Below are positions 10,849 through 56,247 of a stretch of 64,000 bases of DNA, piece by piece; within the stretch, counting starts at the first letter, position 1; every line of letters begins with the position of its first letter. A program made the position numbers and the translations under genes. The DNA comes from an uncultured bacterium (GTDB taxonomy: Bacteria; Bacteroidota; Bacteroidia; Bacteroidales; CAIXTV01), in the NCBI GenBank assembly GCA_903922465.1, contig CAIXTV010000067.1, positions 216 through 64,215 on the forward strand, read 5' to 3'. The notes beneath the pieces were generated by a model. That model searched no databases, had not been told where the DNA came from, and was given only the letters and a program-made list of their open reading frames with translations.

Positions 10849-11226
10849 TTTATTACATACCGCGGCAATTTTATTACACTCCGCAACATTAACAGCACAT
10901 CCGGCAAGAGTTTTATTACATACCGCAACTTTAACAGTACATCCGGCAAGATATTCATTACACTCCGCGACTTTAACAGTACATCCGGCAAGAGTTTTAT
11001 TACACTCCGCGACTTTAACAGTACATCCGGCAAGATTATAATTACACTCCGCGACTTTAATAGAATACTCCGCGACTTTAATAGAACATACCGCGGCATT
11101 TTCATTACGCTCCGCGACATTAATGGAACATACCGCGGCATTTTCATTACGCTCCGCGACATTAATGGAACATCGAGAATGTTTTTTATTACACCCGGCG
11201 ATATCAATGGAACATCGGGAGTGATG
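10849..11226. repeat. Tandem array 1: 18 x 21-bp units, mostly alternating A/B (42-bp period)
   Basis: Units tttattacactccgcgacttt / aacagtacatccggcaagagt and variants, contiguous with no spacers. Confidence 0.92.
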
Positions 11227-11522: not shown

Positions 11523-11530
11523 TATATTTG
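11523..11530 (+). promoter_or_regulatory. -7 promoter box (TATATTTG) for the AAA ATPase pair
   Basis: TAnnTTTG match 18 bp before ATG 11549. Confidence 0.55.
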
Positions 11531-11548
11531 TCATGTAAATTGAATAGT

Positions 11549-13687
11549 ATGAAACACACTAAAAGCCTTTTCCTCAAAACAAGAGAGGATCTGGGATATA
11601 AGGGTCCCATTAAAAGATTTGATCAAAAAAAATATCAAGCCAAACTAATTGATGGATATATTGTTCAGGGCGAAATTGTTTTTGGTTCGCGCTATAATGA
11701 TGTGGTCGCTTATGAGTTTGACCAAAACGGAAAAGTTAAAGAAGAAGAACAACATATAATAGATAGCTCATATACTTTAAATTCATATAATGAAAAGGGA
11801 GAGAAATTTGATAGTAAATTATTTTTTCAAGATGGATCTCAGAATACATATTCCACTTATGAATATGACGAAAATAGTAATATGATCGGGTTTATTCATT
11901 ACGATAGCAATAATCAACCTACTTCAAGGGCTGATTATATTTATAATAAAAAGGGATTTTTGGTGAAATATATTCATTTTGATAAAGATAATAAACTTAC
12001 CCAAACGATTAATTATATAAATGATGAGAACGGAAACCAGCTTGATCAGAAGAACTACAAGACCGATGGCACCCTTTCTTATTGGTGTGTTAATAAATAT
12101 AATGATAAGGGGCATTCCCTCGAATCTATAACAATGAATCCGGATGGTAGTGTTCAAAAGACGCTTAAATATAACTTTATATATGATGATGATGGGCATG
12201 TCATTGGGAGCAATGGGCAATTATATCGTGATGATCCTGAACCCGAACACACAGATTATGAGTTCGATGGTTTTGGCAATTGGACCTGCCGAGTTATATT
12301 TCACCACAAATTACCTGTATTTATATATCTGAGAGAAATTAGCTATCATTCAGATAATGTTGAGGAAATTATTCAGTCCGATACGCCTAAAAAAATAGCT
12401 TATACCATCAAAAAATCAGATAAAAACAAAGCAACAACCCAAAATATGGAAAACACTCCTCCTGCCACTAATCCCAAACTCGAATATCAGGAGTTGGAAG
12501 AATCTCAGGCTAAATGGCTTGCCGAAGCATGCACAGTTGAGCTATTTCCAGTGGTGCGCTATTATGCCATACAGAATAACGAAATGCCTTCAGCCACAGT
12601 TTATCGTGGACACGACATCGAAGTAACTGCACTATTAACAGAACTTCAACAAGAAATGGGGGCAAAGATAATTCATTCATATAGCCAGCAATATCTCAAT
12701 TGGGGCGAAGAGAATCTGAATAGCGTGGTGCTGCGTTTCCCCAATAAAAGATATCTCGTACTCATAAGCGGCATATATTCACAAAACGAATCGGTCTACC
12801 TAGTTCCCGAATTTTTTGATAAATATCACGAAGGCTGGGAAAGCTCATTAGATATAGGGCATCTTACATTGTACCATCCAACGGATGATTCAGACTTTCG
12901 TAGCACAGCCTTCGAAGAAGAACTTGAAAGTTATATCAACCTCTGCTCTCTCGAAAAAGTGCCCGATTTACCCGAAATACAAATGGTTGAAGTTGATGGC
13001 TCGGGCGAATATCAGTTGAAAACCTATCCCGTGAACGACAATTTTCTTATTAAAAACCTCGACATACATTATGGCTATGGTTTCGAAACCTTTCATAATA
13101 AACTTATGGATAGATTTAAACACGAAACCAAAGGACTGGTTTTGTTCCATGGCGAACCGGGCACCGGAAAAACCTACTACATCCGCCACCTGCTGCGCCA
13201 CATGGCACAAAACAATAAAGTAGTTATCTACATACCCCCTAATATGGTGGAACGATTGGTCGATCCGGCATTTTTCACCTTTCTTTCCAGCGAATTATCC
13301 GATTATTCCACAGAAGGAAAATTTTGCGTCTTACTGGTAGAAGATGCCGAGCCTCTGCTGGCTTCACGACAAAATGAAGGCAGAGTAATAGGAGTGTCCA
13401 ATTTGCTAAACCTTACCGACGGACTGTTAAACGATATGATGAAACTCCAAATCATTTGCACCTTCAACGTTAAAATACAAGAACTCGACGCAGCTCTCCT
13501 CCGCCCGGGCCGTCTGATTGCCCGAAAAGAATTTAAAGCCATGTCGATGATCGATGCCAACCGCCTGGCACAACAACTGGGCATTAAACATCATTTCACT
13601 GCCCCCGTCAGCATCGCCGAAGTGTATGCTCTTCAAAAAGACAAAAACACACTGACCCATACGTCCATTGAAGAAGAAGATTTCTGA
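11549..13687 (+). CDS. YD/RHS-like repeat domain fused to BCS1-like AAA ATPase (paralog 1)
   Basis: N-terminal YxYDxxGN-type repeats ending YEFDGFGNW...REISY; Walker A GEPGTGKT, Walker B VLLVEDAE, LLNLTDG, DAALLRPGRL. Confidence 0.8.
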   Translation: MKHTKSLFLKTREDLGYKGPIKRFDQKKYQAKLIDGYIVQGEIVFGSRYNDVVAYEFDQNGKVKEEEQHIIDSSYTLNSYNEKGEKFDSKLFFQDGSQNTYSTYEYDENSNMIGFIHYDSNNQPTSRADYIYNKKGFLVKYIHFDKDNKLTQTINYINDENGNQLDQKNYKTDGTLSYWCVNKYNDKGHSLESITMNPDGSVQKTLKYNFIYDDDGHVIGSNGQLYRDDPEPEHTDYEFDGFGNWTCRVIFHHKLPVFIYLREISYHSDNVEEIIQSDTPKKIAYTIKKSDKNKATTQNMENTPPATNPKLEYQELEESQAKWLAEACTVELFPVVRYYAIQNNEMPSATVYRGHDIEVTALLTELQQEMGAKIIHSYSQQYLNWGEENLNSVVLRFPNKRYLVLISGIYSQNESVYLVPEFFDKYHEGWESSLDIGHLTLYHPTDDSDFRSTAFEEELESYINLCSLEKVPDLPEIQMVEVDGSGEYQLKTYPVNDNFLIKNLDIHYGYGFETFHNKLMDRFKHETKGLVLFHGEPGTGKTYYIRHLLRHMAQNNKVVIYIPPNMVERLVDPAFFTFLSSELSDYSTEGKFCVLLVEDAEPLLASRQNEGRVIGVSNLLNLTDGLLNDMMKLQIICTFNVKIQELDAALLRPGRLIARKEFKAMSMIDANRLAQQLGIKHHFTAPVSIAEVYALQKDKNTLTHTSIEEEDF

Positions 13688-13738: not shown

Positions 13739-15877
13739 ATGAGAAATACGAATAATCAAAAAGGCAAAAACATTGACGAATACAAACTAAAGGGAAAGCT
13801 TAAACGATTAGAGGAAAATGTTTACGATGCAGCCTTGAAAGGTGGCTATATTCTGAAGAAAGAGAAGAATGAAGATATGGGTTTTGATTATAATACCATC
13901 CTCTTTTTTGATGAAAATGGAAATAAAAGAGAAGAAACATTTGGACACCTACATCAATTTCAATTGAAACATATTTTTGACGAAAATGGAGTTGAAACAG
14001 AGCAGCATTCAATTGAAAAAGATATTTTAAAAAGTATTGTTTATTTTGAATATAATGAATCAGGCAAAAAGTCTAAATTTACACACTTTGATATTGAAAA
14101 GAATTCAGTTTCTTCAATTTCTTATTGGCAGTACGATGAAAACCAAAACCTGATAAAAATAATATATAATGATGGCGATGATAATCTGACTCAAACAAAC
14201 GAATTTATTTATGATGCCAATGGACACAAAATCGAACAAAAATATACTAATGCTGATGGAAGCATAACATATTGGGCTTTATTTACTCCTGATACACATG
14301 GAAATGCAATTGAAACCAAGAAATTAAATCCTGATGGGTCTGTAAAAGAAATTGAAACCAAAACATATTATTATAATTCAGAGGGGAAAATAATAGGCAT
14401 CAACAACAAAAGTTTTAATACCAAAGATAACAATTTTTTTATCGAACAAGAATTCGATCATCATGGAAATTGGATTTTAGGAATTATGTATGAAAAAAAA
14501 ATCCCTAAGAGTCTATCATATAGGAATATAATATATTATGACGAGCCCGACAATGCTTCAAATAATGTCATTGAGGAAACAATTAAAATCCCATACCGCA
14601 AAGATAAAATTGAGGAAGAAATTGGGAAAGACCCTTCCAAAGCTAGTAGATTCAATTATCAGAAAGCACTAATAGCACATCCCGAAACCCCAAATGCTGA
14701 ATGGCTGGCTATGGGAGGGAGCTCTGGAGATTACCCTGTAATTCGACATTATGCTTTGCTAAACAAGGATATACCCTCAGCGAAACGAATTTTCGATCAA
14801 AACGTTGACGTGATTAAGCTATTGGGCGAATTGAAAGAAAATATGGAAGCGGAGATCCTATGCACCTACGATTCCTTTTATCTGAATCTACAAGAAAATG
14901 AGCTACATGATTATGTTTTAGCATTTGCAAACGAATATTATTTTTTGCAAATTAAAAACATACAAGTGCTTTCCGACAAAGAATATAATATTGAGGAATA
15001 TTTTTTTGATATGTACCCACCCAGACGAAAAGGGTATGTATATATCGGCGACATTATACTATACTATCCAAGCGAGTTTTCAGGTAAAAGAGACGAGGAC
15101 TTTGAAAGCGATTTGGAATATTATTTAGATCAATGCAATTTAGAAGAAAAACCCGAGCAACCCTATATTGAAATAGTGCAGGTGGATACAAATAATCAGT
15201 TTACTCTGAATTCTTATCCAGTTGTAAACGATTTTAGTATCAACGATTTGGATTTAAACTATGGCAAAGGATTTGAAGCTTTTCATGATAAACTGATTCA
15301 GCGGTTTAAAAGCGAAACTAAAGGATTAATACTTCTCTATGGCGACGCTGGGACTGGAAAAACCTATTACATACGTCACCTTTTACGCCATATGACAGAA
15401 AACGACAAGGTTGTAATTTATATGCCTCCCAATATGGTAGATCAACTGCTCAATCCAAACTTCATAACCTTCCTCTCCAACAGCATTTCACAGCTTGCAC
15501 GAAACGGAAATTCCTGTGTTTTATTAGTGGAAGATGCCGAACCCTTGCTCGTTTCGCGCGAACATTACTTGCGTTCAATGGGCATTTCCAATCTGTTGAA
15601 TCTCACCGATGGTCTGTTAAATGATGTGTTGAATATACAAATCATCTGCACCTTCAATGTGAAAATACACGAACTCGATAAAGCCCTCCTCCGCCCGGGG
15701 CGACTGATTGCACACAAAGAATTTAAAGCCCTCTCTGCTCTGAATGCCAACCGCCTGGCCCAACAATTGGGCATCAAACATCGCTATAGTGTTCCGGTAA
15801 ATATTTCAGATGTTTATGCCCTCCTCGAAGGGAAAGAAATCTTAACTCATGATACATTGGATGGCGAGGACGTATAA
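13739..15877 (+). CDS. YD/RHS-like repeat domain fused to BCS1-like AAA ATPase (paralog 2)
   Basis: LKGKLK start, YDxNG repeats, EFDHHGNW...RNIIYY; GDAGTGKT, VLLVEDAE, LLNLTDG, DKALLRPGRL. Confidence 0.8.
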   Translation: MRNTNNQKGKNIDEYKLKGKLKRLEENVYDAALKGGYILKKEKNEDMGFDYNTILFFDENGNKREETFGHLHQFQLKHIFDENGVETEQHSIEKDILKSIVYFEYNESGKKSKFTHFDIEKNSVSSISYWQYDENQNLIKIIYNDGDDNLTQTNEFIYDANGHKIEQKYTNADGSITYWALFTPDTHGNAIETKKLNPDGSVKEIETKTYYYNSEGKIIGINNKSFNTKDNNFFIEQEFDHHGNWILGIMYEKKIPKSLSYRNIIYYDEPDNASNNVIEETIKIPYRKDKIEEEIGKDPSKASRFNYQKALIAHPETPNAEWLAMGGSSGDYPVIRHYALLNKDIPSAKRIFDQNVDVIKLLGELKENMEAEILCTYDSFYLNLQENELHDYVLAFANEYYFLQIKNIQVLSDKEYNIEEYFFDMYPPRRKGYVYIGDIILYYPSEFSGKRDEDFESDLEYYLDQCNLEEKPEQPYIEIVQVDTNNQFTLNSYPVVNDFSINDLDLNYGKGFEAFHDKLIQRFKSETKGLILLYGDAGTGKTYYIRHLLRHMTENDKVVIYMPPNMVDQLLNPNFITFLSNSISQLARNGNSCVLLVEDAEPLLVSREHYLRSMGISNLLNLTDGLLNDVLNIQIICTFNVKIHELDKALLRPGRLIAHKEFKALSALNANRLAQQLGIKHRYSVPVNISDVYALLEGKEILTHDTLDGEDV

Positions 15878-16107: not shown

Positions 16108-16171
16108 TAAAAAGCCTAACTCCAAGCTATAGGCACTCTAGTCACTTCCTCAACTAATATCATATCATTTC

Positions 16172-16318
16172 CATCTAGAACAATCTTAACCCCATCCAGA
16201 ACAATCTCAACCTCATCCAGAATAATCTCAACCTCATCCAGAACAATCTCAACCTCATCCAAAACCAACTCAACCCCATTTGCAACTAACTCAACCCCAT
16301 TTGCAACTAACTCATGCT
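16172..16318. repeat. Tandem array 2: 7 x 21-bp units
   Basis: catccagaacaatctcaacct grading into catttgcaactaactcaaccc. Confidence 0.92.
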
Positions 16319-16458
16319 CATATTACAAAATCTAAGCCATATTCCACTAATTACAAGACAAATAATCAATCACTTAACCCTTTTTCGCCCAATTAATACA
16401 TCAACTCAAACCAATCTAACTAAGAACTAATTCTGCCGAAAATAATTCTATCATATTT

Positions 16459-16807
16459 ATGTTGAAAAAAAATATTACCTAAAGTTTTTCTCATTTCTAA
16501 TTACTCATTTTAGATTTTCCCAACTAGCTTATTATGAAGCATTCTTTCTTGCTTCGCGTCGTGCCGATATTGGCGTACATCACACCGGGCTAAATGCTTC
16601 AGTAACTCTTAATGGCGCCGCTGTTGCAGGAGGAATCGTAAGCGTTGGCGAAAAAACTTCAGTTTCTAACACCGAAGGAATTTGCGATCCAATTATTGTA
16701 CGTTCAGGCTTAAAAGAAATCACTTGTGAACTTTCCGGACAAACTAAAAAACAATCAACCACCGTTTCATCCGTGGTCACATGGACGATATGACATTCGA
16801 ATTCTAA
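16459..16807 (+). pseudogene. Decayed remnant of a helical + Ig/carboxypeptidase-regulatory-like protein gene
   Basis: Startless open frame 16446-16793 (LITHFRFSQLAYYEAFFLASRRADIG...VSVGEKTSVSNTEG...); out-of-frame ATG at 16459; plausible tail KTINHRFIRGHMDDMTFEF* in shifted frame; followed by terminator. Confidence 0.55.
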
Positions 16808-22135: not shown

Positions 22136-23614
22136 TTATAATGATTTAAGAACGCCGGTGGCTTCGTTAAATTCGTTAATCATTTCGTCCCATTTGTTGG
22201 CTTGTTGCAGCATGTTGTCCCAAATGGTACGGTCGTACCAGAGTTGATTCAGGTCGTCGATTTCCTTTGCCTGTTGTTCAACCCAAGTAAAATATTTAAG
22301 ATTATGAATGGCTTTACGATCGTAATAATTCAGTTCTTTCAGATGGTCGGTTCCTTGTCCCAACAAACATTTTTCCATGTCTTTTACTGCCTGAGTCGAA
22401 TTGTAAGCACCTTTTTCAAGGGTTAATTCTTCCAAACGGGATTGGTACATTTCTGCAGAATCGGTGGCAAGGGTAAGAATGATATCGTCATTTGTCATTT
22501 CGTAATATTTAGCTGCTTTAATGGCTGAAAGCATATTGGAAATGCCCGAAATACCAAGCAATCCCAGAGAATCAACAAAGCTTGCATCAAGTCCTAATGA
22601 GCGAAGATAGTTTTTACCATCGGCTTCGTTGAACAAACGGAAGATGCGCATACAATCTTCATCGTCAATGGCGGTTATCATATCGGTGTTTTTAGCATTA
22701 TGCACCCAAGGGACATGCTTGTCGCCAATACCTTCGATACGATGTCCCCCAAAACCATTGTTCAAAAGCGTTGGACATTGAAGGGCTTCGGAGGCCACAA
22801 TTTTCATCTGAGGGAATTGTTTTTTCAGATAATCGCCAGCCCCAATCGTTCCGGCAGAACCTGTTGCCGAAACATAAGCAGCCAGTTTTCCATTGGCAGA
22901 TTTCAATTTGTTGAACACTTCCTCTGCTGCAGGGGCGGTAACATTGTAATGCCAGCAAGGATTCCCGAATTCATCAAACTGGTTAAAAATGACACAATCG
23001 GGACGGTTGCGGCGAATATCCCAACAAGCATCGTAAATTTCCTTTACATTCGATTCACAGCCGGGGGTGGCAATCACTTCGGCACCAATTTCTTTTAACC
23101 ATGAAAAACGTTCCTTACTCATCTCTTCGGGGAGGATAGCCACAGCCGTAACCCCCATCAAATAAGAATCGAATGCGCCGCCACGGCAATAATTACCTGT
23201 GCTGGGCCAAACAGCTTTATGGTAAGTAGGATCGAACTCCCCTGTGAGAATGCGAGGGGCAAGGCAACCATAGGCAGCACCCACTTTATGTGCTCCGGTA
23301 GGGAAATATTTCCCAACAAGCAACACAATTCTTGCTTTCACTCCGGTGATTTCAGAAGGGATTTCGATGTAATTCACATTGCCATATAAGCCACCCTTGG
23401 CTATAGGTTCGTTTTTCCAGGTAATGCGAAACAGGTTGGCAGGATGTTTATCCCAAAGACCAATTGTTTTCAGGGTAGCTTTAATTTTATCGGGAACGAG
23501 TTCGGGATTGCGCATTTGAGCAAAAGTAGGCAACACTATTTTCCTCTCACGGAAGCGATCGACAGCTTTTTTCAGTACGTCAGGATTTACAACTTTGTCG
23601 GATATAGTTATCAT
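22136..23614 (-). CDS. PLP-dependent enzyme, cysteine-synthase/ammonia-lyase-like (fold type II)
   Basis: PTGAHK (PLP lysine), PSTGNY, ATGSAGTIG, HRIEGIG. Confidence 0.75.
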   Translation of the reverse strand: MITISDKVVNPDVLKKAVDRFRERKIVLPTFAQMRNPELVPDKIKATLKTIGLWDKHPANLFRITWKNEPIAKGGLYGNVNYIEIPSEITGVKARIVLLVGKYFPTGAHKVGAAYGCLAPRILTGEFDPTYHKAVWPSTGNYCRGGAFDSYLMGVTAVAILPEEMSKERFSWLKEIGAEVIATPGCESNVKEIYDACWDIRRNRPDCVIFNQFDEFGNPCWHYNVTAPAAEEVFNKLKSANGKLAAYVSATGSAGTIGAGDYLKKQFPQMKIVASEALQCPTLLNNGFGGHRIEGIGDKHVPWVHNAKNTDMITAIDDEDCMRIFRLFNEADGKNYLRSLGLDASFVDSLGLLGISGISNMLSAIKAAKYYEMTNDDIILTLATDSAEMYQSRLEELTLEKGAYNSTQAVKDMEKCLLGQGTDHLKELNYYDRKAIHNLKYFTWVEQQAKEIDDLNQLWYDRTIWDNMLQQANKWDEMINEFNEATGVLKSL

Positions 23615-23698: not shown

Positions 23699-23950
23699 AT
23701 TTCTGTCACTTGCTATTTAACGACCATCAACAGTCATAAAACGACTGTCACTTCTCATTTAACGACCATCAACAGTCATAAAACGACTGTCACTTCTCAT
23801 TTAACGACCGTCAACAGTCATAAAACGACTGTCACTTCTCATTTAACGACCGTCAACAGCTATAAAACGACTGTCACTTCTCATTTAACGACCGTCAACA
23901 GTCATAAAACGACTGTCACTTCACATTTAATGACCATCAACAGTAATAAA
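23699..23950. repeat. Tandem array 3: 12 x 21-bp units (6 x 42-bp A/B dimers)
   Basis: acgactgtcacttctcattta / acgaccRtcaacagtcataaa, near-perfect copies. Confidence 0.94.
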
Positions 23951-24079
23951 ACGAATGTTAACTGAAAAGTATTTTCAAAAAAAGGTATTTTCAATTTTGC
24001 CTTATCTTCATAATTGTTGAAGATTAAAAAACTAGCCCCTGTCAAGGGTGTGATTTTTGCATCTAAATATCTGAAATAC

Positions 24080-28745: not shown

Positions 28746-29120
28746 TTAGGCTATTGTAGCAACACTCCAATCTAAATTATTACAAATTAGTATTACCGTT
28801 CGATTACCTTCTTCTTTATATACAACAACATACTGAAATTCTACTTGGCCAATATCATTTTCAATTACACCGTTTGAACGATAATCACTATCTACTACAA
28901 CACGAGCAATATCTCTTGCTGTTTTTTCTTCATCACCTCCATGTTCTGCTTCAGTTATCGCATCCCTTAAGGTATCCAAATGGGTCCTCATTGTAGCCAC
29001 AACAACAACTAGATTAGGGAAGTTTGCATTCTCATCTAAACCTGCAACAGCGTTGTATCCCTTTTGTAAGGCTACAACTTCTGGGAATCTTGAAATATCA
29101 ACTGCTACTTTATAAATCAT
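28746..29120 (-). pseudogene. Internally deleted paralog of the helical + FN3 protein at 52353-52997
   Basis: N-terminal helical region (NANFP, HGGD, DYR) then jumps to short beta-strand remnants; 124 aa vs ~210 aa. Confidence 0.5.
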
Positions 29121-29202: not shown

Positions 29203-29349
29203 TTAATTCAAAACATGTCTGCATTAATTCAAAACATGTCTGCATTAATTCAAAACATGTCTGCATTAATTCAAAACATGTCTGCATTAATTCATTTCGT
29301 GTCTGCATTGATTCATTGTATGTCTGCATTGATTCATTTTTTGACTGCT
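29203..29349. repeat. Tandem array 4: 7 x 21-bp units
   Basis: ttaattcaaaacatgtctgca x4 perfect, then 3 progressively diverged units. Confidence 0.94.
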
Positions 29350-29677: not shown

Positions 29678-29849
29678 TAGATTCCTCTGATATTGTTTGG
29701 TTGACCCCAACTATTGTTTGGTTGGCCTCAACTATGGCCTGACGACTTGTCCCCGAGCTATTTCTTCCTCTCTATTCTCATAAAGAGCAGGGAAATTCAA
29801 TTTTGCAATAATGCTTTTAAATATTCAACACTCCAAAGAACATTCTATG
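29678..29849 (+). repeat. Dispersed repeat copy A (inverted relative to 36492-36664), containing 21-bp units
   Basis: Aligns by eye to reverse complement of 36492-36664; contains tattgtttggttgaccccaac-type units. Confidence 0.85.
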
Positions 29850-36491: not shown

Positions 36492-36664
36492 CATAAAACC
36501 TTCTTTGTAATGTTGAATAATGCGAAAATTTCATTACTGAATTTGAAATTTCCTCTCATTAAGAGAAAAGAGAGGAAGAAACAGCTCAGGGACAATACGT
36601 CAGGCAATGGTTGGGGACAACCAAACAATAGTTGGGGATAACCAAACAATATTAGAAGAATCTA
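36492..36664 (-). repeat. Dispersed repeat copy B (inverted copy of 29678-29849); degenerate 21-bp units continue to ~36735
   Basis: gttggggacaaccaaacaata / gttggggataaccaaacaata units plus conserved tail. Confidence 0.85.
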
Positions 36665-52088: not shown

Positions 52089-52237
52089 CTAAGTAATGTT
52101 ATAGTAAAATTTAGTTTTTGCAAAGATAGAATTTTCTATTCTACATTTTCAATTTTGATGTAATTCATCAGGCAAATAGTCCTCAGATGACTGTTCTCAG
52201 AGAGTAAAAGCGCAATTAGTTTGTCGATTTTAGATAT

Positions 52238-52308
52238 AAAAAAACTTTCCATTTTCCGTTAGCCTAAGAAAAAAGGTGTTTTTAGGCTAAAAGAAAACGG
52301 AAAGAGTT
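52238..52308 (-). terminator. Long imperfect hairpin downstream of FN3 gene
   Basis: tttccgtt/aacggaaa and ttagcctaa/ttaggctaa stems, T run on minus strand. Confidence 0.45.
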
Positions 52309-52352
52309 AAATTAGACAAGAGTCGATTGACAAATTTTTTGGTATTTCGAAC

Positions 52353-52997
52353 CTATGCTTTTGTGCGGAAAGGAATAGGATTGCAATACGCTCCGATGCC
52401 TGTTGGAAAAACACCGGCAACACGAATTAAATATCTAGTATCAACCTTTAAATTAGTAATCTCCATTGCGAGATTTTTGTTCCCAGCTAGAATAACATAA
52501 ACTGGGTCGTGACCCGAAATGATTTCGGCAACCTGAGCTAAATATGCTCCAGCGCCTTTTTCTTTAGGATATTCAATATTAACGGTACCTGCTTCAACTC
52601 CATCTTCAGCTTTGAAAATCCTTGGACCTCTTGGTTTTGGATCTTCATATAATTCGAATTTCATTTCAACAGGTAATGCAGGAAGATTATTTTCATTGGC
52701 ATAGTTTTCAACACATAAAGCAGTGCCACGATAGTAATCGCGTAGTAGAAAAATTCTATCCTTTAAACGAATTCCGGCAGCCTTGTCGCCACCTTTCCAC
52801 AAATGGAAATCGATTGTTGAGGAAGCACAAAGATTATTAATCTCTACAACAGTATGGGGATAATTAGTAATTTCGGTGTGACTGGTCATTTCGATAGCCA
52901 TATTCTGATTACGTTCAATAACAACCAAGGGGTTTCTTGATTTGATGGATGTTTTAACTCTAATGATGATGATCATTAATAATATATTTAGTTTCAT
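52353..52997 (-). CDS. Hypothetical protein: N-terminal helical domain + C-terminal fibronectin type III domain
   Basis: FN3 pattern GTVNIEY..GAGAY...ITNLKVDTRYLIRVAGV...G.G.Y; start may be ATG 52976; no clear signal peptide. Confidence 0.72.
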   Translation of the reverse strand: MKLNILLMIIIIRVKTSIKSRNPLVVIERNQNMAIEMTSHTEITNYPHTVVEINNLCASSTIDFHLWKGGDKAAGIRLKDRIFLLRDYYRGTALCVENYANENNLPALPVEMKFELYEDPKPRGPRIFKAEDGVEAGTVNIEYPKEKGAGAYLAQVAEIISGHDPVYVILAGNKNLAMEITNLKVDTRYLIRVAGVFPTGIGAYCNPIPFRTKA

Positions 52998-53097
52998 TTT
53001 ATTTGTTTTTAAAGTGATTATATTTTTTTTATTTGCAATTTGTTTTATTAAAGAAAATTGTTTTATGATTTGATTCAGACATTATTTATGTTTAGAA

Positions 53098-53309
53098 CAA
53101 CATACAAGGAACAACGAGCAACATACAGGGAGCAACGAGCAACATACAGGAAGCAACGAACAATACCTATTGATGCAACGAGCAACATACAGGAAGCAAC
53201 GTGCAATATGCTGGAAGAAATGATCAACACACAAGGAGCAACGTGCAATACCTATTGATGCAATGTGCAACATAGTGGAAGCAACAATCAACATAGTGGA
53301 AGCAAGCTC
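53098..53309. repeat. Tandem array 5: 10 units of 21 bp (two of 22 bp)
   Basis: caacatacaggaagcaacgag consensus; 22-bp variants caatacctattgatgcaaYgWg at 53161 and 53246. Confidence 0.88.
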
Positions 53310-53631
53310 CCTTGTGTTTGAACGAATATTCTTTGCTTAGAAACGTTGCTTACAAATAAAGGGGAGGAGATTTATCGTGCCGAATGCACAATTCTTTCAT
53401 ATGTATCAGAACAACATCTACCGAATTTCTTACATGCACTATAAAAGGGCAAGTAAAAAAAACATAATAATCGCATCTCAAATATATACTCATGACGAAA
53501 GAGTTTTAAATTCTAATTGCAAAGATACATATTTTTTAAATTCCAACAAAATTCAAAAAAAATAATTCTTTTATTTTGTGAATCAAACGATATGTATACT
53601 TTTGCAAGTCCAATTTATAATACTTATTTTC

Positions 53632-56247
53632 ATGAAAAAACAATTATCCTGCATTATTATTGCACTGATTATGCAATTATCAGCCGTAGCAACACCAATT
53701 AGCGGAACATTTAGCATTCCGGGCGATTATTCAAGTATTTCAGCAGCAATTGCTGATATAAACACAAACGGCATAGGTAGCTGAGGTGCAACTTTCAATG
53801 TTGCTGCAGCTTACACCGAATCGGTTGTTGGGTTAACATTATCAACTACCACTACCCTCGACAGCAATCATTTCATAACTTTCCGAAAAGCAGGCGCCGG
53901 ACTAAACCCCAAAGTTACTGCCTCGGGTAGCATTGCAACAAGCGATGCCGCTATAGCAATAATGGGTTCAAGTTATGTTACTTTTGATGGAATTGATATT
54001 GGTGTGACTGGGACAAATGTTGAATATGGCTATTATCTGCAAAACGTTTCGGGAACAAATGGTTCACAAAACAACAACATTAAAAATTGCCAGATTACAT
54101 TGAATAAAAGCAATAATAACTCTATCGGAATTTATCAAAACGCTTCCATAGCCATTAGCTCATCAACAGGTGCAAATTCTAATAATGTATATCGCAAAAT
54201 CAATATTGATAATAGTTTTACGGGAATTTGGTTGGTTTCGCAAGCTGCCTTTCCCGATATAAACTGCGTAATTGATTCATGCAAGGTTGGAACCACTGCC
54301 AATAGTATAGGTGGCGTTGGAACAGGAGCAACCTGGGGAATCAGATGCGATTATGCAAACACTATCATAATTTCGGCAAATGAAGTTGGAAATATAACTA
54401 TGACAGGAACTAAAAACATAGGCGGAATCTTTTTAGGCGGATGCACGGGTTTAAGTCAGGTATATAACAATAAGGTTCATGATTTAAAAGTTACTAGCAC
54501 ATCAACGAGTTCTGCTCCGATAGGAATAAGAATTGATGAGCCTTCCGGATACAGCGCAATGCTGTACAATAATATGATTTGGGGCTTTTCACATGGCATC
54601 ACTTCACCTAATGCAACCCTATTGTTTCGTGCCATTTCAATCAATACTAATGGTTCAACAGGGACAGTGAATGTTTATAATAATACCGCATGGATTGCAA
54701 GTGGAGCAAATCCTTCAAGCGCAGTATTTAGTATTGGAAGTGGATTGGCAAATGTTAAGAATAATATATTCTATAATACATCAACAGCAGGAGCAACCTC
54801 ATTGAGGTATTGCTATTATGCAGCCTCCGGAACTCTGAATACCTCCGATTATAATGAGCTTTATATTCCAACAGGAACTAATAATTATATTGGTAATTAT
54901 GCTTCTGCTAATAAGACTTTGTTGAGCGATTGGCGCACATCAACCAACATGGATGCCAATTCATTAAATTTGACACTTAATTTCACTTCAGCTTCAAACC
55001 CACATTTGGATGTTAATTCGAATTGTAATTTTGATGGAAAAGGGACTTACATTTTAGGGATTACACAGGATATAGACAATGACATTCGCGATTTAACTAT
55101 GCCCGATATTGGTGCTGATGAATTTCAAGGAGGATGCATCGCTCCTAACGTATTTACGGTAATCGGGGGAGGTAGTTTTTGTGCAGCAGGTTTAGGTGTA
55201 ATTGTTGGCTTAAACGGTTCTCAAGTTGGTGTTAAATATCAATTATATCGCGATGGTTCCATCGTAGTTGGATCTCCTGTTGGAGGTACAGGAAGCTCCA
55301 TTTCATTCGGAAATCAAAATATTGCAGGGACCTATACTGTCAAAACAACTTCAGATGGCTGCTATTGTATCGCCACAATGATAGGAAGTGCGCAATTAAA
55401 CATGGTGCCCATTCCTGATCAACCTTTAGGAAACACCCCACAGGTTTTTATTAACGGTGGCACAATTTCCGACTTACAAGTTACAGGTACTCTCATTCAG
55501 TGGTATGATGCAGCAACAGGTGGCAATTTAATTAGCTCTACCGATTCGTTAATCGACGGAAACACATATTATGCCAGTCAAATTGTGGGTGGATGTGAAA
55601 GTCAAAACCGTTTGGCCGTGAATGTAATCTTGATTCATATTAAAGTGGTTAATATTCATTTATTCCTAGAGGGTTTATATAATTCAGTAAGTATGCAGAT
55701 GAATGAAGCCAAGGATGGTAGCAGTGATGAAGTTAAATGGGGATATGGCATAGCCGATAGAATACAAGTGGATCTTTTCGAAGAAAATCCTCCTTATGCG
55801 CCAATAGGCGTAAGCATAAGTGGAATTGATTTAACAACAGGAGGTTTAGCAACGTTTCAGGTTTCACCTAGCTGGAGTGGAAATTATTATATTAGAATCA
55901 GATCTAGAAATCACTTAGAAACATGGTCAACTATAGCAGTTCCTTTTAGCTCCTCAACTGTTGAGTATAATTTCACTACTGCATCTATGCAGGCTTATGG
56001 CCTTAGTTCACAGGTTAAGGTTTCATCAAATCCTGATGTGTATGCCTTTTATCTTGGCGATTTAGATCAGGGAGGATGGGTCGATTCAGAGGATTTTAAT
56101 TTATTTGAACCCTATTTAACTGCAGGGACTGTAGGATTTGTTATAGCCGATTTTAATGGAAGTGGTTGGGTCGACTCTGATGATTTCAATCTTTTTGAAT
56201 TAAGATTAACCACAGGGGCTTTTGCGCAATATCCTGGAAAGAAATAG
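53632..56247 (+). pseudogene. Large secreted beta-helix/Ig protein with C-terminal dockerin-like repeats, interrupted by in-frame TGA at 53782-53784
   Basis: Signal-peptide ORF (ATG 53632) and ORF 53962 share a frame, open on both sides of one TGA; C-terminal FLEGLY, RNHLETWS, GDLDQGGWVD, DFNGSGWVD. Confidence 0.78.

Follow-up and report, generated by a model that had tools for sequence, protein, structure and literature searches.

A period-21 tandem array upstream of a helical and FN3 domain-containing small-protein gene in Bacteroidota: linkage, turnover and possible roles

The stretch of DNA analysed here, referred to below as the window, comprises 64,000 nucleotides (positions 216 to 64,215) of contig CAIXTV010000067.1 from an uncultured Bacteroidales bacterium (assembly GCA_903922465.1). 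Between its positions 52238 and 53527 it carries, on the minus strand, a non-coding array of tandem 21-base-pair (bp) units followed by a gene whose small protein product has a helical domain at the N-terminus and a fibronectin type III (FN3) domain at the C-terminus. This focal locus represents an intact copy of a widespread Bacteroidota module. Arrays of this period are linked to the genes of the protein family in a polar manner, on the upstream side; array and gene are inherited as one unit, and the array turns over far faster than the gene. The best explanation, which we hold tentatively, is that the array may be a sequence-independent, helically phased cis element in the DNA, placed 5' of a small-protein gene. 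New are the helical and FN3 protein family, the statistics on polarity, the replacement of arrays beside near-identical genes, and the presence of the same module in distant complete genomes. An earlier annotation, made from the letters alone and called here the sequence-only reading, had put the cassette forward as an undescribed system, and full-text searches of open-access papers and preprints indeed brought up no account of period-21 arrays tied to Bacteroidota gene families.

Linkage of the arrays to homologous genes and their turnover

The sequence-only reading had proposed a comparison of homologues for upstream period-21 arrays, and this comparison came out clearly in favour of a link. 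At the level of the order, 401 genomes were searched with a profile, and 27 of them, this genome counted, contain the family, often in several copies (7 matches in G047 and G096, 6 in G156 and G264, and 4 in G003). The genes were relocated with a profile built from an alignment, A1, of 11 rows at 21-39% identity to the query. This profile matched 65 open reading frames (ORFs; 71 domain rows), of which 59 were kept at 140 or more profile positions, and the 6 ORFs left out were partial or represented FN3 repeats of large proteins. A related-locus search with a five-row alignment returned 2 loci only. An array was counted when Tandem Repeats Finder (TRF) reported a period within 1 bp per multiple of 21, at least 2 copies and a score of at least 40 at a distance of no more than 700 bp, and the upstream count was limited to full-length members with at least 500 bp of upstream DNA. 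An array was found upstream of 37 of the 48 members so defined, including the focal locus and two other copies of this genome, versus downstream of 7 of 57; for members less than 500 bp from a contig end, an array was still seen in 5/11. In many homologous genes of other draft genomes, a contig end lies within a few hundred bases on the upstream side.

A second, independent sample of 401 genomes at the level of the phylum contained the family in 6 further genomes from other orders and one other class, with an array upstream in 9/14 and downstream in 0/14. The pooled counts, 46/62 upstream versus 7/71 downstream, give a Fisher p of 8e-15, with the limit that related copies are not independent. 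At the order-level loci, array and start codon are 34-467 bp apart, and the arrays measure 52-465 bp in length; two of the 46 homologous cassettes with arrays have a period of 20. No conserved neighbour or partner gene was detected among the 59 loci. The possibility that the array is coding, as a series of seven-codon repeats, was rejected in view of the period-20 arrays in homologous cassettes and of frame-shifting 22-bp units in the focal array, and the open frames that run through the latter are expected of any 21-bp repeat.

The arrays are not confined to one uncultured lineage. The complete 5.97-Mb genome G563, from another order, has 7 copies of the family, and an evenly spaced 400-kb sample of it contains 15 period-21/42 arrays, one of which precedes a family member. 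In the two genomes G031 and G438, where the family was not found, 400-kb samples of each contained no array of five or more copies; this co-occurrence is a comparison of two array-rich carriers (this genome, with about 350 arrays, and G563) with two array-poor non-carriers only. The sample of G563 (contig C1) consists of 20 pieces of 20 kb (L115-L134) and shows about one period-21/42 array per 27 kb. Several of these arrays have a CCCCTGCAAT-type unit in common, and a 105-bp repeat in 18 copies occupies L128:1-1931.

A comparison of the cassettes with one another gives the rate at which the arrays change. Among 42 cassettes of the FN3 family, BLAST similarity between arrays was seen in 0/859 pairs with less than 90% protein identity; two pairs reach that level, and the similarity persists just in the orthologous one. 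The paralogues L033 and L004, from one genome, are 94% identical in gene DNA, 95% in protein and 94% over the 250 bp upstream of the array, yet their arrays are only 47% identical, no more than random DNA reaches under that global alignment (49%); by eye, both still contain common short motifs, CGATTCCTCC among them. In the pair L010/L037, also from a single genome, the gene is 87% identical in DNA and 85% in protein and the spacer 68%, and both the array (52%) and the region upstream of it (45%) are at random level. The orthologues L014 and L040, from two genomes of one genus, share 90% of protein sequence and roughly 93% of the approximately 155 bp before the ATG. Their arrays, of 9.7 versus 7.8 units of 42 bp, are in register and roughly 75-80% identical by eye, and nothing is alignable upstream of them. 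In a duplicated cassette of another family (C236/C264), identity of 88-92% extends from the array to the stop codon. The array thus forms the 5' boundary of what is inherited together, and no other part of this unit changes nearly as fast. These comparisons bear out the earlier description of a multi-copy, fast-turnover cassette, which is also polar. Duplicated or orthologous copies have in common the stretch that starts with the array and stops with the gene, and nothing outside it. What is kept of the array is its period alone, its sequence being free.

Apart from these comparisons, L014 (2074-2804) and L040 (3574-4304), both on minus strands, show by eye, in the stretch that separates the array from the start codon, a conserved stem rich in GC, with TTTTTGTG after it. 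This could be a candidate attenuator or terminator, and it has no counterpart at the focal locus.

The focal cassette and its two-domain protein

Direct reading of the minus strand gives, from 5' to 3', two TAnnTTTG boxes, the array (53302-53098), an A-rich spacer, an ORF that ends at 52353, and a hairpin with a T run. The boxes, at 53527-53520 (TATCTTTG) and 53486-53479 (TATATTTG), both fit the TAnnTTTG pattern that the sequence-only reading had assigned to them, and can be regarded as a candidate promoter. The array at 53098..53302, to which no strand is assigned, was likewise correctly recognised as a 21-bp array and comprises about 10 units with the minus-strand consensus CGTTGCTTCCTGTATGTTGCT. 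TRF gives it a score of 105 at period 21 (7.1 copies), of 182 at period 43 and of 247 at period 85; two of the units, counted by eye, are of 22 bp, which accounts for both the 43/85-bp higher-order period and the shift of reading frame within the array. Its sequence is unique in the genome, and no similar copy of the array or of either 350-bp flank was found among the other 349 arrays.

The spacer (52977..53097, minus strand) is A-rich as had been described, and its length to the ATG at 52976 is 121 bp and not the 100 bp given earlier. It probably carries the gene's own promoter and leader, and a consensus scan revealed no terminator-like site in it. The gene itself, 52353..52976 on the minus strand, appears in the ORF list with 214 residues from 52997, and the ATG at 52976, which gives 207 residues, is supported by homologues and by the database copy P0001. 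Downstream, an intrinsic-terminator-like hairpin with a T run (52238..52304, minus strand; stem 52304-52245) begins 49 nucleotides (nt) past the stop codon and contains 22 base pairs in two stacked stems. Its folding energy of -29.9 kcal/mol (z = -5.7), a stability reached in 0/200 shuffles, agrees with the hairpin that had been noted there.

A word-index protein search matched only the protein itself, as a 207-residue record from the ATG at 52976. An exhaustive phmmer search returned 24 proteins at E <= 0.001, including a set of 204-209 residues (one of 249) that align end to end; P0002-P0006 cover query residues 12-213 with E values of 1.6e-39 to 3.5e-15. The focal protein thus fits from end to end a family of about 205-215 residues with an N-terminal helical and a C-terminal FN3 domain. 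An AlphaFold2 model made with A1 has a mean predicted local distance difference test (pLDDT) score of 91.8 and shows a short N-terminal strand, which lies in a basic segment, then three helices (16-32, 43-61 and 65-95) and a beta sandwich; the fold obtained without the alignment was poor (pLDDT 37.6) and was not used. The modelled C-terminal half is an FN3 (PF00041-type) beta sandwich, matched by Foldseek at E 5e-6 and by VIA-align with Z 12.7 and a root-mean-square deviation of 1.8 over 84 residues (model 119-207), and the family profile matches solved FN3 chains at E 3e-8. The earlier proposal of a gene for about 210 residues with helical and FN3 parts is thereby upheld.

Curated family collections are less informative. 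Neither Pfam nor PHROG nor PADLOC assigned the focal protein to a family at a curated or confident threshold: the Pfam fn3 model matches 4/11 members, best E 0.019, below its own cut-off, and the match in PHROGs is limited to the FN3 end of a 'major tail protein' family (E 0.002). No fold match was obtained for the N-terminal helical domain, with the limit that FN3 filled the structure lists and the PDB profile and that Atlas gave unnamed clusters, so this domain is effectively untested. The invariant residues in A1 (A86 and Y145) look structural, the N-terminus is basic with the consensus MxRKIKVxxxL, and A1 contains no conserved polar surface motif beyond structural residues. From its sequence and model, the protein, without an evident signal peptide, would be a small cytoplasmic two-domain protein. 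Prediction of a homodimer scored 0.26 against a mark of 0.42, and a tblastn search for relatives gave no match in phages or in 72,556 plasmid records.

On the opposite strand, the adjacent gene encodes a surface protein that contains an Ig_7 (CHU_C-associated) domain, and the focal array therefore sits in a divergent intergenic region. This surface protein gene appears split: a 68-residue ORF with a signal-peptide-like start (53578-53784, plus strand) ends in a stop, and the main ORF of 761 residues with Ig_7 (53962-56247, plus strand) starts 177 bp after it, so that a frameshift, a pseudogene or an assembly error is possible. In G001, a genome of the same genus, DNA homology stops at window position 52138, just past the hairpin; this genome retains the aminotransferase operon up to that position and has a different gene and no array at the cassette site. 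A search of G001 with the protein query gave no match to the FN3 family, and the profile gave one partial match elsewhere in that genome. For a comparison of strains, neither a protein scan nor a 21-base pattern scan detected the cassette in metagenome contigs, and two metatranscriptome runs of the same study gave no read cover.

Arrays elsewhere in the genome and in the window

In the whole assembly (5.02 Mb, 312 contigs), TRF returned 417 rows of period 21 and 175 of period 42, with every other period at 71 rows or fewer. These correspond to 397 loci of period 21n, and 350/389 arrays are intergenic after removal of true protein repeats and of spurious ORFs made of repeat. Because 119/350 intergenic arrays touch contig ends and the same array recurs, inverted, on both members of several contig-end pairs, these arrays evidently break the assembly, being a main cause of its fragmentation into 312 contigs, and the counts are somewhat inflated. 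By context, the flanking genes are tandem for 118 arrays, divergent for 67 and convergent for 46, and 129/350 are singletons in sequence. The units are 60% AT versus 70% in the surrounding intergenic DNA, and their base composition is symmetric relative to the gene strand.

Paralogous families of about 200-330 residues emerge among the ORFs whose start lies no more than 600 bp from an array and which are directed away from it. When the family profiles were searched over all ORFs of the genome, an array was found upstream in 21/34 and downstream in 1/34 members of cluster 2 (about 300 residues). The upstream counts were 7/7 for cluster 3 (about 220 residues), 6/7 for cluster 4 (about 320), 7/7 for cluster 7 (about 247), 6/7 for cluster 11 (about 241) and 5/5 for the FN3 subcluster (about 176 as the seed mean, truncated copy included), with none downstream in these five. 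ABC ATPases of about 309 residues, which are control-like, have an array upstream in 3/33 and downstream in 1/33. Taken together, the family genes have an array within 700 bp upstream in 68/100 and downstream in 1/100, against a baseline for other genes of 184/3500 (5.3%) upstream and 231/3500 (6.6%) downstream. The figure of 68/100 is biased upward, the families having been seeded from array-adjacent ORFs; the test on FN3 homologues is free of that bias. An intact family ORF lies downstream of 82 arrays only; with fragments counted, a family gene points away from 90 arrays, and for 6 the only such gene points at the array.

Profile-profile comparison resolves these families into at least three sets without detectable mutual homology, all with the same period: clusters 2, 10, 5, 6, 14, 21 and 4; clusters 11, 22 and 7; and A1 with clusters 12, 20 and 19. 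Among 20 family representatives there was no confident match in Pfam or PADLOC, with two exceptions, namely one family with a weak carboxypeptidase-regulatory-like C-terminal domain and the genes of the four-helix '23S rRNA intervening sequence protein' (23S_rRNA_IVP; for example, C100:107-463 and C12:772-1140), which have an array upstream in 5/14. In the 60 nt before the start codons, the enriched 7-mers are AT-rich words only, such as AAATTAA (28/99 versus 317/3437), which is in part a matter of higher AT content. A 'TTATTAAC' motif, noticed by eye, was not established.

The sequence-only reading stated that the same layout recurs twice more in the window, that is, three times in 64 kb. These layouts do exist, and both are decayed cassettes of an array plus a gene. 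The window has not three but seven period-21/42 arrays by TRF, three in 64 kb is about the genome average (397/5.02 Mb), and the third copy belongs to another protein family. In the second cassette, an array of no defined strand (29203..29336; 21 bp, 6.4 copies, 92% matches by TRF) is followed 82 bp downstream by a minus-strand ORF of 124 residues (28746..29120). This ORF is a truncated member of the helical and FN3 family that clusters by BLASTP with the members C78 and C99 of the genome and covers positions 1-142 of 203 of a profile, the FN3 end missing; the ORF was itself among the seeds of that profile. In the third, two adjoining 21-bp arrays, again without defined strand (16171..16314, TRF), belong to an array sequence family of 8 members, and a 243-bp stretch of their right flank has 95% identity to another copy. 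No intact ORF lies downstream of them, and the gene remnant at 16446..16790 on the plus strand matches another array-linked family, with proteins of about 300 residues, over positions 191-283 only of its 302-position profile (E 1.2e-16). The remark that such cassettes are often decayed is accordingly true of two of the three copies in the window, one a truncated member and the other a fragment.

Further arrays lie elsewhere in the window. The array at 10869-11217 (350 bp; 21/42/84-bp periods) lies about 310 bp upstream of two plus-strand genes, 11528-13687 and 13739-15877, which are tandem paralogues of 719 and 712 residues with a C-terminal AAA ATPase and a long N-terminal part without family match; none of the array-linked family profiles matches there. 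A very regular 42-bp array at 23703-23958 (6.1 copies, 94% matches), one of a 17-member array family scattered in the genome, lies between the minus-strand gene 22136-23614 and a universal stress protein gene. Finally, 29691-29735 and 36605-36651 are two-copy 21-bp repeats that are related to each other in inverted orientation, with flanks of about 115 bp that are 78% alike.

Competing explanations and comparison with known systems

The reading of the array as a DNA element is favoured because near-identical proteins have unrelated arrays, because unrelated protein families have arrays of the same period, and because arrays persist without cassette genes. According to this reading, the array would act in cis as DNA, upstream of the gene's own promoter, as a helically phased multi-site architectural or docking element, about 21 bp being two turns of the DNA helix, and would set the strength of expression of the downstream gene. 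Period and number of units would matter, and not sequence. Unequal exchange between units would keep the period, homogenise each array and shift the copy number in two-turn steps, and in this way the array could let expression within a rapidly diversifying repertoire of small binding proteins be tuned heritably. The binder may be an abundant host architectural protein, or the cassette protein acting without dependence on sequence. A bolder form of the proposal, which we regard as unlikely, is that Bacteroidota genomes each hold tens to about a hundred modules in which an array with a two-turn period controls one member of the repertoire, that a dedicated period-measuring reader exists, possibly polymerising cassette proteins, and that copy number switches or grades expression; this would amount to a new kind of repertoire, serving contingency or resembling immunity, and to a novel way of recognising DNA.

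Several observations weigh against the DNA-element reading. No array was detected upstream of 16/62 homologues; about 260/350 arrays have no recognised cassette gene; 46 arrays lie between convergent genes; and the orphan arrays are comparable in length to gene-linked ones and equally homogeneous (median 159 versus 196 bp, 85% matches in both). Orphan arrays are thus as intact as linked ones, and arrays therefore need no such gene. The strict Bacteroidota promoter box, TAnnTTTG, is rare throughout the loci, occurring within 200 bp upstream of the array in 6/42 and between array and gene in 5/42. Dyad symmetry is barely enriched (arms of at least 5 in 18.5% of units versus 12% of shuffles), and curvature due to A tracts was rejected as a general property, an A4/T4 tract being present in 34% of units versus 52% of random intergenic 21-mers. 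RNA of the sense strand folds less stably than that of the antisense strand in 80/124 arrays (p = 0.007, the copies being related), a small asymmetry that fits a transcribed array equally well.

The sequence-only reading had inferred that each protein is paired with its own repeat. In such a cognate pair, the cassette protein would bind its own array sequence-specifically, autoregulating or forming a nucleoprotein complex in the manner of Rep proteins at plasmid iterons or of ParR/SopB at centromere repeats, and array and protein would co-evolve. The polar layout of one gene and one array, their common inheritance and the conserved basic N-terminus, followed by a helical domain of unknown fold, would be in accord with this. 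However, paralogous genes of 94-95% identity have arrays that are no longer alignable, and a pair with 85% protein identity has unrelated arrays. The 21-bp period is common to at least three families without detectable homology, most arrays lack such a gene and are not more decayed, and the family shows no conserved polar surface motif beyond structural residues. These findings speak against the inferred pairing and lead us to consider sequence-specific recognition unlikely. About as doubtful, in our judgement, is the explanation that the arrays have no function of their own, a lineage-specific mutational process making and renewing intergenic 21-bp minisatellites that ride with young, duplicating or mobile orphan genes, in which case the link would reflect shared descent. 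This would account for a genome-wide class of 397 loci, most without a cassette gene, for the breaks in the assembly at 119/350 arrays, for minisatellite-like evolution, for the decay of cassettes and for the missing cassette at the same place in the genome of the same genus. The main argument against such hitch-hiking is that descent alone would have lost the arrays, because they turn over within about 5% of gene divergence and yet keep the same place and polarity beside homologues at 21-39% identity, across orders and one other class. In addition, the upstream/downstream asymmetry is extreme (68/100 versus 1/100 genes, and 90 versus 6 arrays), and replacement of the sequence leaves the period at 20-22 bp.

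Lower still do we rate a module acting at the level of RNA, in which the array would be transcribed with the gene or just before it, its 21-nt units serving as a processed ligand or antidote in the style of type III toxin-antitoxin systems, or as a leader that is unstructured or regulatory. An array placed immediately 5' of a small gene does recall the type III layout, and the two boxes upstream of the focal array, the weak bias of the sense strand to less structure (80/124 arrays), the hairpin with a T run between array and gene in one orthologous pair (L014/L040, by eye), and a sporadic multi-copy distribution like that of defence genes would all be compatible with it. On the other hand, the protein is not a ToxN/AbiQ-type nuclease and has no PADLOC or Pfam match, its invariant residues look structural and not catalytic, and the consensus scan gave no terminator-like site in the focal spacer. 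The base composition of the arrays is symmetric relative to the gene strand, the upstream boxes are not conserved, L033 and L004 have a terminator-like hairpin just before the array (by eye), and orphan arrays occur between convergent genes.

If the arrays control the genes as the DNA-element reading proposes, they would constitute a phylum-wide regulatory device that is kept through period and repeat number with its sequence free, unlike classical operators, iterons or centromeres. This would open a first way into the roughly 100 genes per genome, belonging to several families, that have no known function, and would account for hundreds of 21-bp minisatellites that also fragment assemblies. 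The module is open to experiment, as the family and the arrays occur together in complete single-contig genomes such as G563.

Among known systems, iteron arrays beside plasmid rep genes are made up of 17-22-bp direct repeats whose phase is about two turns of the helix, with a sequence that differs between systems. The focal array and the arrays at 46/62 homologous loci (two with period 20) resemble them in period-21 phasing beside a gene. They differ in that no Rep family is found by Pfam, there is no plasmid or phage relative, about 100 copies are dispersed in the chromosome, and the array sequence is not kept between near-identical proteins. Partition centromeres include parC of plasmid R1, with 11-bp repeats upstream of parMR, and sopC of F, with 43-bp repeats. 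The similarity lies in a phased array beside a small-protein gene and in a 42/43-bp higher-order period reminiscent of sopC, but the present loci have no NTPase partner (ParA/ParM/TubZ) and no conserved neighbour among 59 loci, and are chromosomal, dispersed and multi-copy. In type III toxin-antitoxin systems (ToxIN, CptIN and TenpIN), repeats of roughly 34-40 nt lie upstream of the toxin gene, with a terminator between the two, and are cut from their transcript into single units; the toxins ToxN/AbiQ, CptN and TenpN are endoribonucleases. An array directly upstream of a small gene, system-specific repeats and a sporadic multi-copy distribution are common to both, whereas the protein here has three helices and an FN3 domain and belongs to no ToxN/AbiQ/CptN/TenpN family, the units are of 21 nt, and many arrays stand alone. 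As to a terminator, the scan showed no such site in the focal spacer, and one orthologous pair (L014/L040) has, by eye, a hairpin with a T run there. Assignment to iteron-Rep, partition centromere or type III toxin-antitoxin systems fails because the defining protein of each is absent.

Contingency loci such as the hmw genes of Haemophilus influenzae, which have promoter-proximal 7-bp repeats upstream, are similar in having unstable repeats before a gene, where copy number can tune expression in hmw-type loci. The units here are of 21 bp, with a period fixed across unrelated sequences and across the phylum, and are tied to cytoplasmic protein families, and an effect on expression is only proposed. 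The arrays also differ from CRISPR, as the sequence-only reading rightly stated, in that the units stand head-to-tail without unique spacers. The nearest published element found is BrickBuilt of Porphyromonas gingivalis, a minisatellite or miniature inverted-repeat transposable element with a spacer-less 23-nt tandem repeat, which is described as always intergenic, has many copies per genome and has reported promoter activity (Klein et al., 2015; PMC4596501). It forms one sequence family with a conserved leader and tail and inverted-repeat ends, with no tie to a gene family described. Both elements are thus intergenic, spacer-less tandem repeats of about two helical turns, present in many copies in Bacteroidota; the arrays considered here differ from BrickBuilt in that each has its own sequence, the focal one being unique, in their period of 21 bp, and in their polar link to protein families.

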